DNA from: an uncultured Prevotellaceae bacterium
GTDB lineage: Bacteria > Bacteroidota > Bacteroidia > Bacteroidales > Bacteroidaceae
Assembly (NCBI GenBank): GCA_900315565.1
Contig: OMZS01000021.1
Span: 504-64,503 of the forward strand
DNA length: 64,000 bases
Direction: 5' to 3'
The position numbers were made by a program, and so were the translations under genes. Each line of letters opens with the position of its first letter. Position 1 is the stretch's first letter. The notes below the pieces were generated by a model, which saw only the letters and a program-made list of their open reading frames with translations, was not told the origin of the DNA and made no database searches. Positions 8-1,600 of this stretch are shown here, piece by piece.

Positions 8-1600
8 TTGCGAGTCTCCTATATGGACTCATTTCTGGAACACAAAGAAGAGCCCGAATGCCATCTGTATTCCATTACTATACTCAAAGATTTCCCTGCC
101 ATTGCCTACGGAAGTGAGCAACACGAGAAATTGGTCAGTAATGCAATAGGTGTCCGCTTATTTGCAGGAAGAGACAAGGTGGATGACAATTGGTATACAG
201 AGTACCCCACCACCTTAGGCGTTTTGCTTGATTATATCCAGACCTACGGCTACCCCTTGGATTTAGATGGTCTGAAAGAAGCCTGTGACGATACTAAGGA
301 ATATATCTATTTTCAAATGGCGTTGTTACGACCGACAAAGATAATTGGTAAAAACACCGCCATCAATTACCTTTGTTTCAGGGCAAAGGTGGAAGAGTTT
401 ATGAATATGAATCAGTCCGCACCAGTGGAAGAGGTATTAATGATTGATTTCACAGACTATACCCAAGCCAAATACTTGTCAGAAACCTCAGATTCTGTTT
501 TCGACAAACACGTTTGCATTCTGGGGTGCGGAGCCGTTGGCAGCAAGATTGCAAGCCACCTCCATCGTAGCGGTATCTTCTGTATCGATTTGGTAGATAC
601 CGACTCGCTGATGCCACACAATGTAGTACGGCACGCTTTGTCTGCATACAAGCCTGGCTCCTTCCTTCTCAATAAAGCAAATGCCATGAAAACCCATCTG
701 ACGGAAATGTTCTATGACATGCCGCACGATGGTATCAAGTCATACAATGAGGATGCACTTAAGCATTTAACGCCCGAGAATCTTGACAAAATTGACATCA
801 TCATTGATGCTACGGCATCTGTCCGTGTAATGTATGGTCTTGACATGCTATCTTACCCCGACAAAACCCGCATTGTCCGTGTGGCACTTATGGAAATTCT
901 CCACGCATCACTTTCCAACGACGAGGTTTACCGTTGGCTATCTTCCGAGCGCAAGAACTCCACCGAGAACATCCGTGTGGGCGAAGGCTGTCATTCCAAC
1001 ACCATGCGTATCAGTGATGACACCATCTCTGCCCATGCAGCCCTGATGTCATCCGCCATACGGCACATCTACGAGGGAGAGCAGCACAACAGAATCATTC
1101 TATCCTTTGCCCATCGTGACTTCCCTGGTAGTATGCATACCTGCACGCTCCCCGTCAAATCCTACCAACAATTTCCCTGCGCGAATGATGACACTTGGAC
1201 GGTTCGCATCCCGGAATATCTGCTGGCGGAAATCCGTTTGAAAGCCAAGATTGCTGGGCAGAAAGAAAACGGAGGCTACCTATTTGGTCATATTGACTAC
1301 AAACGGTGCATCATATACCCGCTCAATAATTTTATGCCTCGTGACTCCAAGGGAACAAAATTCGGTTTCCGTCTGGGCACCAGCGGACTGAAAGACTACA
1401 AGAAAATGATTGCACAGCGAAGCATTACTCAGATGGAATACATAGGTGACTGGCATTCCCATCCCGCCTGTGCTTTGGACATGTCGGATATTGACCTCGC
1501 CACCAGTGCCCTGGATGTTCTGCCGCAATTAAAGAATGGCATTGGCCTCTGTGTTATTACCAAAACAAACGATACCAAATTCTTTCTCCTTTCGAAATAA
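8..1600 (+). CDS. E1-like (ThiF/MoeB-fold) adenylyltransferase fused to a C-terminal JAB/MPN (JAMM) metallopeptidase
   Basis: 530-aa ORF. The nucleotide-binding loop VCILGCGAVGSKIASHL is followed by CIDLVDTD and IIIDATAS, as in ThiF/E1. The C-terminal JAMM site is complete: E in QKENGGYLFGH and HSHPACALDMSDID (HxHx7Sx2D). The listed start is TTG and the first ATG is at 23. The frame is open to nt 2, so the true N-terminus may lie left of the window. Confidence 0.75.
   Translation: MRVSYMDSFLEHKEEPECHLYSITILKDFPAIAYGSEQHEKLVSNAIGVRLFAGRDKVDDNWYTEYPTTLGVLLDYIQTYGYPLDLDGLKEACDDTKEYIYFQMALLRPTKIIGKNTAINYLCFRAKVEEFMNMNQSAPVEEVLMIDFTDYTQAKYLSETSDSVFDKHVCILGCGAVGSKIASHLHRSGIFCIDLVDTDSLMPHNVVRHALSAYKPGSFLLNKANAMKTHLTEMFYDMPHDGIKSYNEDALKHLTPENLDKIDIIIDATASVRVMYGLDMLSYPDKTRIVRVALMEILHASLSNDEVYRWLSSERKNSTENIRVGEGCHSNTMRISDDTISAHAALMSSAIRHIYEGEQHNRIILSFAHRDFPGSMHTCTLPVKSYQQFPCANDDTWTVRIPEYLLAEIRLKAKIAGQKENGGYLFGHIDYKRCIIYPLNNFMPRDSKGTKFGFRLGTSGLKDYKKMIAQRSITQMEYIGDWHSHPACALDMSDIDLATSALDVLPQLKNGIGLCVITKTNDTKFFLLSK

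Follow-up and report, generated by a model that had tools for sequence, protein, structure and literature searches.

The left edge of the 64,000-nucleotide stretch analysed here ('the window': positions 504 to 64,503 of contig OMZS01000021.1, assembly GCA_900315565.1, from an uncultured Prevotellaceae bacterium) raises the question of which system includes a single-chain protein that joins an E1-like ThiF domain to a JAB metallopeptidase and runs off the sequence at its N-terminus. An earlier note, made from the window's letters, had read it as ubiquitin-like conjugation machinery of a defence type and of an undescribed architecture. The evidence below indicates that the gene at window 2..1600 (+) very probably codes for residues 164-718 of a 6A-MBL anti-phage system's cap2_3 protein, in which E2, linker, E1 and JAB domains form one chain; this estimate covers the identity of the gene and the system only. 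The copy is diverged and cut by the window edge, and its architecture was already known.

The cap2_3 protein at the window edge

The open reading frame (ORF) at window 8..1600 (+) was confirmed, its reading frame being open back to nt 2. It was compared with an intact allele on L040, a public rumen-metagenome scaffold identical to the window (contigs carrying related loci are given here by L numbers; L040-L042 were found through the neighbouring MBL protein and share the same chromosomal context). The ORF corresponded, residue for residue, to positions 164-718 of a 718-aa protein, minus residues 460-482, and the TTG at nt 8 was an internal codon rather than a start. The window thus holds the 3' 77% of a cap2_3 gene (E2-linker-E1-JAB; 2..1600, +, stop codon at 1598-1600), while the E2 domain, made up of the 163 N-terminal residues, sits to the left of the window.

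The best NCBIfam match of the window fragment was NF058523 (cap2_3), with 275.5 bits over two stretches (E = 9.8e-82). This was below the equivalog cut-off of 320 bits, as the fragment lacks 163 residues at the N-terminus and a further 23 internally; the intact L040 allele (389.6 bits) and a homologue with 90% identity, P0001 (397.8 bits), both passed. Among 5.8 billion proteins searched, 118 relatives were found; nearly all were about 710-760 aa long and had Prok-E2_A, ThiF and Prok-JAB domains, about seven being shorter and partial. Prok-E2_A was found in all full-length homologues and in the L040 allele, in the module order E2-E1-JAB, and the E2-domain residues H97 and C110 were invariant in the family alignment. 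A triple-module E2-E1-JAB protein beside an MBL gene is operon type 6a of Iyer et al. 2006 (PMC1779556).

Within the window (residues counted from nt 2), Pfam ThiF matched residues 164-294 (E = 7.9e-16, 58.4 bits, cut-off 28.1) and Prok-JAB matched residues 405-513 (E = 3.9e-7, 30.4 bits, cut-off 25). PADLOC models for JAB (3.9e-15) and for CBASS (cyclic-oligonucleotide-based anti-phage signalling system) Cap2-type E1-E2 proteins (down to 5e-24) were also matched, and a profile search of the PDB found the JAB/MPN chains 9ild, 2kcq and 5cw6. Both the length of the ORF and these E values are far beyond chance. The E1/ThiF-type adenylation domain occupied nt 491..1090 (+; end approximate), with its Gly-rich loop at nt 524-541, and the JAB/JAMM metallopeptidase domain occupied nt 1214..1540 (+), with E422 at nt 1265-1267 and the JAMM motif H485-x-H487...S495-x-x-D498 at nt 1454-1495. 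Invariant or near-invariant columns of the family included G175/G177/G180, D199/D201, R210, K225, D269, C330, E422, H485-S486-H487, S495 and D498. Every motif that the earlier note had quoted, for the ThiF/E1 nucleotide-binding core as well as for a complete JAMM site, fell on such columns, and its assignment of the C-terminus to JAB was borne out by the Pfam and PADLOC scores. All catalytic-type residues (E1 Gly-loop, Asp, Arg and Cys; JAMM E...HxH...S..D) were present in the window ORF. As a domain, however, E1 is incomplete, with 23 residues missing after nt 888, and its activity is doubtful.

One residue of the E1 domain bears on mechanism. The cysteine codon of the motif GEGCHSNT, at nt 989..991 (+), is C330 in window numbering and C516 in the full protein; this column was invariant in 46 sequences. 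In the structural model C516 lay in a flexible loop, the blocks over residues 501-520 having predicted local distance difference test scores (pLDDT) of 74 and 60. By analogy with Cap2, C516 is presumed to be the catalytic cysteine of E1, borne by a crossover loop.

The AlphaFold model of P0001 (pLDDT 88.2, predicted template modelling score 0.80) contained a beta-rich domain between E2 and E1, at residues 164-313. The top Foldseek match of the full-length model was Enterobacter cloacae Cap2 (7to3_A, 610 columns, E = 3e-22), and a sequence profile search (hmmsearch) against the PDB likewise ranked Cap2 best (7tsq/7tsx/7to3, E = 1.7e-22). Cap2 is laid out as E2, a central ATG7-N-like linker and E1, and its crossover loop carries the E1 cysteine (bioRxiv 10.1101/2022.03.31.486616). 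The roughly 160 residues that the earlier note could not place, and treated as an unrecognised N-terminal domain, are on the evidence of this model a Cap2/ATG7-like linker domain. It is mostly beta and covers nt 2..490 (+), as delimited by the P0001 model, Foldseek and the Cap2 layout.

Matches to ThiF and MoeB equivalogs (at most 45 bits), and the public annotation of relatives as 'ThiF family adenylyltransferase', could suggest an adenylyltransferase that serves the biosynthesis of a sulfur carrier (thiamine or molybdopterin) or of a siderophore, JAB trimming the carrier protein. The probability of this is close to nil. Scores on the ThiF, MoeB and TcdA equivalogs were far under their cut-offs (e.g., 45.3 against 275), there was no rhodanese domain, and no ThiS/MoaD or biosynthetic genes lay nearby; the upstream genes, on L040 and among relatives, were conserved and were not MoaD or ThiS. 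A fused E2 with a conserved cysteine, moreover, has no role in sulfur transfer.

The model of the earlier note placed the ORF at the 3' end of an operon resembling Bil or Bub, with separate genes for a ubiquitin-like protein (Ubl), an E2 and a sensor or effector to the left, and regarded an E1-JAB fusion with a new N-domain as undescribed. An E1 fused to JAB, a frame open at the window edge and defence genes nearby all agree with it. The operon does continue leftwards, where MBL and four-transmembrane (4-TM) genes were found on L040; however, these were the only genes upstream on L040 and in more than 20 relatives, whose cassette contexts contained neither a Ubl gene nor a free-standing E2. 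The E2 is instead the missing N-terminus of the same polypeptide (Prok-E2_A; H97, C110), the residues at the N-terminal end of the ORF match the Cap2 linker, and the architecture was tabulated in row 6a by Iyer et al. in 2006 and is curated in NCBIfam as equivalogs of the 'anti-phage 6A-MBL system'. The model as a whole is accordingly very unlikely, the sequence upstream in L040 and L041 speaking directly against it, while its broader claim of defence-type conjugation machinery homologous to CBASS Cap2/Cap3 agrees with both the 6A-MBL assignment and the best PDB match.

The ubiquitination-like operons Bil (types I and II) and Bub (Iyer types 6d/6e) share their E1, E2 and JAB chemistry with this cassette and lie in defence or mobile settings, and JAB-E1 fusions occur there too; they have a separate beta-grasp Ubl and a free-standing E2, whereas this cassette has no Ubl ORF and its E2 is fused. 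ATG7, with ATG3/ATG10, shares a homodimer-type E1, a crossover-loop cysteine and an N-terminal or linker domain that positions a non-canonical E2. ATG7 chains were among the structural and sequence matches, although distant (TM-score ~0.25-0.3); in those systems the E2 is separate and the substrates are Ubls (ATG8, ATG12).

The MBL-fold partner and the proposed conjugation

On L040, the gene immediately upstream overlapped the start of cap2_3 and scored 333.8 bits on NF058524 (6A-MBL_enzyme), passing the equivalog cut-off of 220 bits; the copy on L001 scored 334.9 bits. An MBL gene was found directly 5' of E2-E1-JAB in Bacteroidales metagenome-assembled genomes (MAGs), Methanoregula, Acinetobacter, Pseudomonas and Arenimonas, and also in Thalassotalea and Glaciecola (JAB separate in both) and in 75-kb Clostridium perfringens plasmids. 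The metal-binding motifs of the partner were GNGD, H73-x-D75-x-D77-H78, G-D236 and H264-H265.

The cassette has the features of 6A-MBL systems elsewhere: the same E2-E1-JAB single chain, an MBL gene overlapping it upstream, the same catalytic residues and the same C-terminal glycine on the MBL protein. The protein itself was only 22-29% identical to those of Pseudomonas and Acinetobacter, and the scores for cap2_3 and MBL were lower here (390 and 334 bits) than in Pseudomonas (649 and 413 bits). The Bacteroidales clade also adds a gene for a 451-aa AAA_21 ATPase, and carries a 4-TM gene in the same operon. Other papers cite 6A-MBL as an experimentally supported phage-defence system of Pseudomonas aeruginosa (PMC13276650; bioRxiv 10.1101/2025.09.30.679545), and they credit the validation to van den Berg et al. 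2024.

Two variants of the layout were observed among relatives. In Thalassotalea (L027:9008-11312) and Glaciecola (L029:8927-11255) the gene was MBL-linked and JAB was a separate downstream gene of 157-191 aa; this layout is intermediate between the Cap2/Cap3 and 6A layouts. In Methylocella sp. (L055/L056:7001-10371) a distant E2-E1-JAB homologue (22% identity) was followed by a patatin-like phospholipase gene and was not preceded by an MBL gene. A patatin in place of MBL suggests effector swapping within the family.

Type II CBASS was the nearest solved relative, and the PADLOC matches to its E1-E2 (5e-24) and JAB (3.9e-15) models would also be expected of a fused Cap2-Cap3 that conjugates a cyclic-nucleotide synthase, of either type II CBASS or Pycsar. 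Such an identity is exceedingly unlikely: no cGAS/DncV-like nucleotidyltransferase (CD-NTase) or cyclase gene occurred in any context read, the Cap3 equivalog NF050170 gave 16.7 bits against a cut-off of 200, and the partner gene encodes an MBL whose score is above the 6A-MBL cut-off. The likeness to type II CBASS Cap2/Cap3 (E. cloacae Cap2, 7TO3/7TSQ) concerns the E2-linker-E1 fold, the crossover-loop E1 cysteine, the JAB antagonist and a substrate other than a Ubl, namely an enzyme whose flexible tail ends in glycine. The differences are that JAB is fused here, that the partner is an MBL-fold hydrolase and not a CD-NTase, and that there is no cyclic-nucleotide effector gene; sequence identity to Cap2 was ~17-21%.

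The tail of the MBL partner was of low complexity and contained a glycine that was invariant in 17 of 17 full-length sequences. It was the terminal residue in 11 of these, ending ...KPHFYG* in Bacteroidales, PRTYG* in Methanoregula and RAG* in Acinetobacter and Pseudomonas. In the remaining six it was followed by 2-5 residues (YYG|QRF, RAG|CK, RAG|AKK, RNG|GDGYA), and the MBL of the C. perfringens plasmid, which was checked separately, had one residue after the glycine (TYG|K). Such an invariant glycine, followed in some sequences by a short extension, directly supports 'MBL-ylation' at the sequence level, as well as a role of JAB in processing.

Cap2 conjugates the C-terminal glycine of cGAS by way of its E1 and E2 cysteines (bioRxiv 10.1101/2022.03.31.486616), and 'MBL pathways' have been described as related to type II CBASS and Pycsar and as attaching their own enzyme to unknown targets (PMC11601596). 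By analogy, a mechanism like that of Cap2/Cap3 has a slightly better than even chance of applying here. The E1 domain would adenylate the invariant C-terminal glycine of the MBL-fold enzyme, which would pass as a thioester to the crossover-loop cysteine C516 (C330 in window numbering), then to the E2 cysteine C110, and would finally be ligated to an acceptor, so that the MBL hydrolase is primed or relocated. The JAB domain would trim the short post-glycine extensions and reverse conjugation, keeping the system in check.

The cassette and three deletions in the window copy

Among Bacteroidales relatives with E2-E1-JAB proteins 44-100% identical to that of the window, four co-directional genes recurred in different genomic places. 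Their order was 4-TM protein (242-246 aa), MBL (378-380 aa), E2-E1-JAB (715-728 aa) and AAA_21 ATPase (451 aa). To judge from the scaffold sequence, the window gene is the third of four cassette genes in this rumen Bacteroidales organism. The surroundings of relatives contained restriction-modification, KAP NTPase, AAA+HNH, patatin and LlaJI/WYL/reverse transcriptase genes, together with an integrative-element primase and other mobile-element genes. Orthologue neighbourhoods in the contexts read were of the defence kind that the earlier note had anticipated, with mobile-element genes as well.

The 4-TM protein is about 240 aa long, has 2+2 transmembrane helices and carries the conserved motifs P-T-T-x-M-L and G-F-x-R-N-x-L-G. 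Its gene was located at L040:15715-16455(-), ~1.6 kb left of the window start, at L001:8136-8876 and at L010:7425-8132, with further loci at L012:5895-6740(-), L027:7118-7825 and L061:1826-2554. A profile built on the Bacteroidales sequences detected counterparts beside MBL and E2-E1-JAB in Methanoregula, Arenimonas, Pseudomonas (on the opposite strand) and Thalassotalea. E values at first detection were 7e-15 to 1.6e-10; loci fetched later matched too, with E = 1.4e-38 for the C. perfringens plasmid. The profile did not detect the protein in Cap2-like loci without an MBL, and the family had no match among Pfam, NCBIfam and PADLOC models. The 4-TM protein was thus tied to the MBL and E2-E1-JAB pair in every phylum sampled (Bacteroidota, Gammaproteobacteria, Clostridium plasmids and a methanogen), and may be an overlooked third component of 6A-MBL. 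Other identities were considered for the 246-aa upstream protein. A Ubl was ruled out, as it is a 4-TM protein, and similarity to Csx27 was not significant (E = 0.0036; 17 bits, cut-off 65).

The fourth gene, an AAA_21 ATPase, marks a subtype of gut and rumen Bacteroidales. An intact gene of 451 aa was present in L001, L002, L040 (11063-12418, -), L041 and L046-L053. It was missing from L005/L006, although their E2-E1-JAB was 62-63% identical to that of the window, as well as from L008 (33%), L054 (35%) and every locus of proteobacterial or archaeal origin. L004 (Candidatus Bacteroides merdavium), an independent MAG, had the same gene in frameshifted form.

In the window this gene is broken. 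The sequence was 100.000% identical, without gaps over 2474-56288, to ENA scaffold STEW19-1_SAMEA5383872_METAG-scaffold_8 (reference L040/L058/L060); the three window blocks before nt 2474 were identical as well, and three missing segments were the only differences in 56 kb. The first is an in-frame deletion of 69 bp at junction 888/889 (+), which removes SEGGDVGVTYLGIDSKQPLADYY, residues 460-482 of the E1 core. In the intact model SEGGDVGVTYLGIDSKQPLADYY takes in strand 465-471 and the beginning of helix 478-488, where the pLDDT is 89-95, and the 23 residues were kept in 13 of 13 aligned homologues. The second, of 190 bp after nt 1636 (+), removes approximately codons 6-69 of AAA_21, the Walker A motif GNNGSGKS among them, and causes a frameshift. 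The third, of 101 bp after nt 2473 (+), removes approximately residues 348-380 of AAA_21. The fourth cassette gene, encoding an AbiLi/AriA-like ABC-type ATPase (1622..2686, +; start codon 1622 kept), is consequently split over two frames in the window, 1630-2550 and 2360-2683, with two frameshifts. The deleted segments were present in all five related contigs compared (L001, L040, L041 and L046 being named for the 69-bp segment).

The window copy is probably not functional, because 23 residues of the E1 core are missing and the ATPase gene is broken, unless the deletions are an artefact; given that proviso, inactivity of the copy as the sequence stands is evenly poised. A model of the window variant had pLDDT of 35-55 over residues 298-335, directly after the junction and including the catalytic-cysteine loop; its alignment was shallower than that of the intact model (14 against 46 sequences), and the drop is suggestive only.

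That the copy is intact and functional in the organism, the deletions having arisen in assembly or data handling, is a prospect only a little short of even. Three independent deletions with zero point differences in 56 kb are hard to square with ordinary decay, and neither direct repeats nor microhomology was found at any of the three junctions. The junction of the 69-bp deletion had 0 matches in the JGI metagenome collection, where the intact sequence, used as a control, had 1 (L046), so this result is weakly informative; the 302-aa product of the broken ATPase gene had no public record. All three deletions, however, fall within 1.6 kb, inside two genes of a single defence cassette, with none elsewhere in the 56 kb, and such clustering is unexpected of random artefacts. 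Short-read assemblers also require reads that span a junction, and defence cassettes are often lost or inactivated, the ATPase gene being frameshifted in L004 too.

Real deletions would also enter a wider proposal, according to which the published two-gene 6A-MBL system is incomplete: the 4-TM protein would act as membrane anchor, conjugation target or effector, AAA_21 possibly as a sensor, and a costly system would have been selected off in this organism. This combination is considered doubtful.

Several points weigh against the interpretation of the window gene as a damaged 6A-MBL member that conjugates its MBL partner. The fragment alone, cut by the edge and by a deletion, is below the NF058523 cut-off. 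The MBL and 4-TM genes lie outside the window, and their presence here is deduced from a scaffold with 100% identity over 56 kb. It is the C-terminal glycine of the MBL, together with homology, that suggests its conjugation. The putative anti-phage role is taken from secondary citations and from NCBIfam naming. The copy can be called non-functional only if the deletions are real, and no other public contig carries them. To a system known from comparative genomics since 2006, the window as such contributes no more than one member from Bacteroidales, which is diverged, truncated and apparently damaged; what could be of use to the study of bacterial ubiquitin-like immunity is the terminal glycine of the MBL, the 4-TM partner and the ATPase-bearing subtype.

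Neighbouring features

A separate three-gene module at 2696-5682 (-) converges on the 6A-MBL cassette. It encodes an AAA_21 ATPase (AbiLi model, 2.8e-60), RloB (AbiLii-like) and a second MBL-fold protein, for which the best fit was the PADLOC candidate PDC-M48B (8e-43) and LmuA/Avs1a-type MBLs. The module was found only in the closest relatives (L001, L040/41, L046). The AbiL-like cassette that the earlier note had named beside the fused E1-JAB protein is this module, which is on the opposite strand and is lacking in most relatives.

The MBL gene of the module (2696-3748, -) was considered as the 6A-MBL partner and rejected, with 36 bits against the cut-off of 220. It was a better fit to PDC-M48B or LmuA-like proteins, shares its operon with RloB and AAA_21, and is missing from most related cassettes.

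Similarity to sequence outside the window was seen further along. A stretch of about 120 bp at 6602-6722, at the end of a short LRR_5-type ORF (6102-6620), matched at 89% identity a stretch lying ~3.3 kb to the left of where the window begins, and the latter is near large LRR_5 genes on the same scaffold. The stretch at 6602-6722 is probably what remains of a gene for BspA-like leucine-rich repeats that was split by the insertion of the two defence modules. Lastly, two adjacent direct repeats of ~97 bp, ~90% identical and offset by 85 bp, were identified at 15408-15589, in the intergenic region between a uvrA-like gene and a sigma-70 gene.

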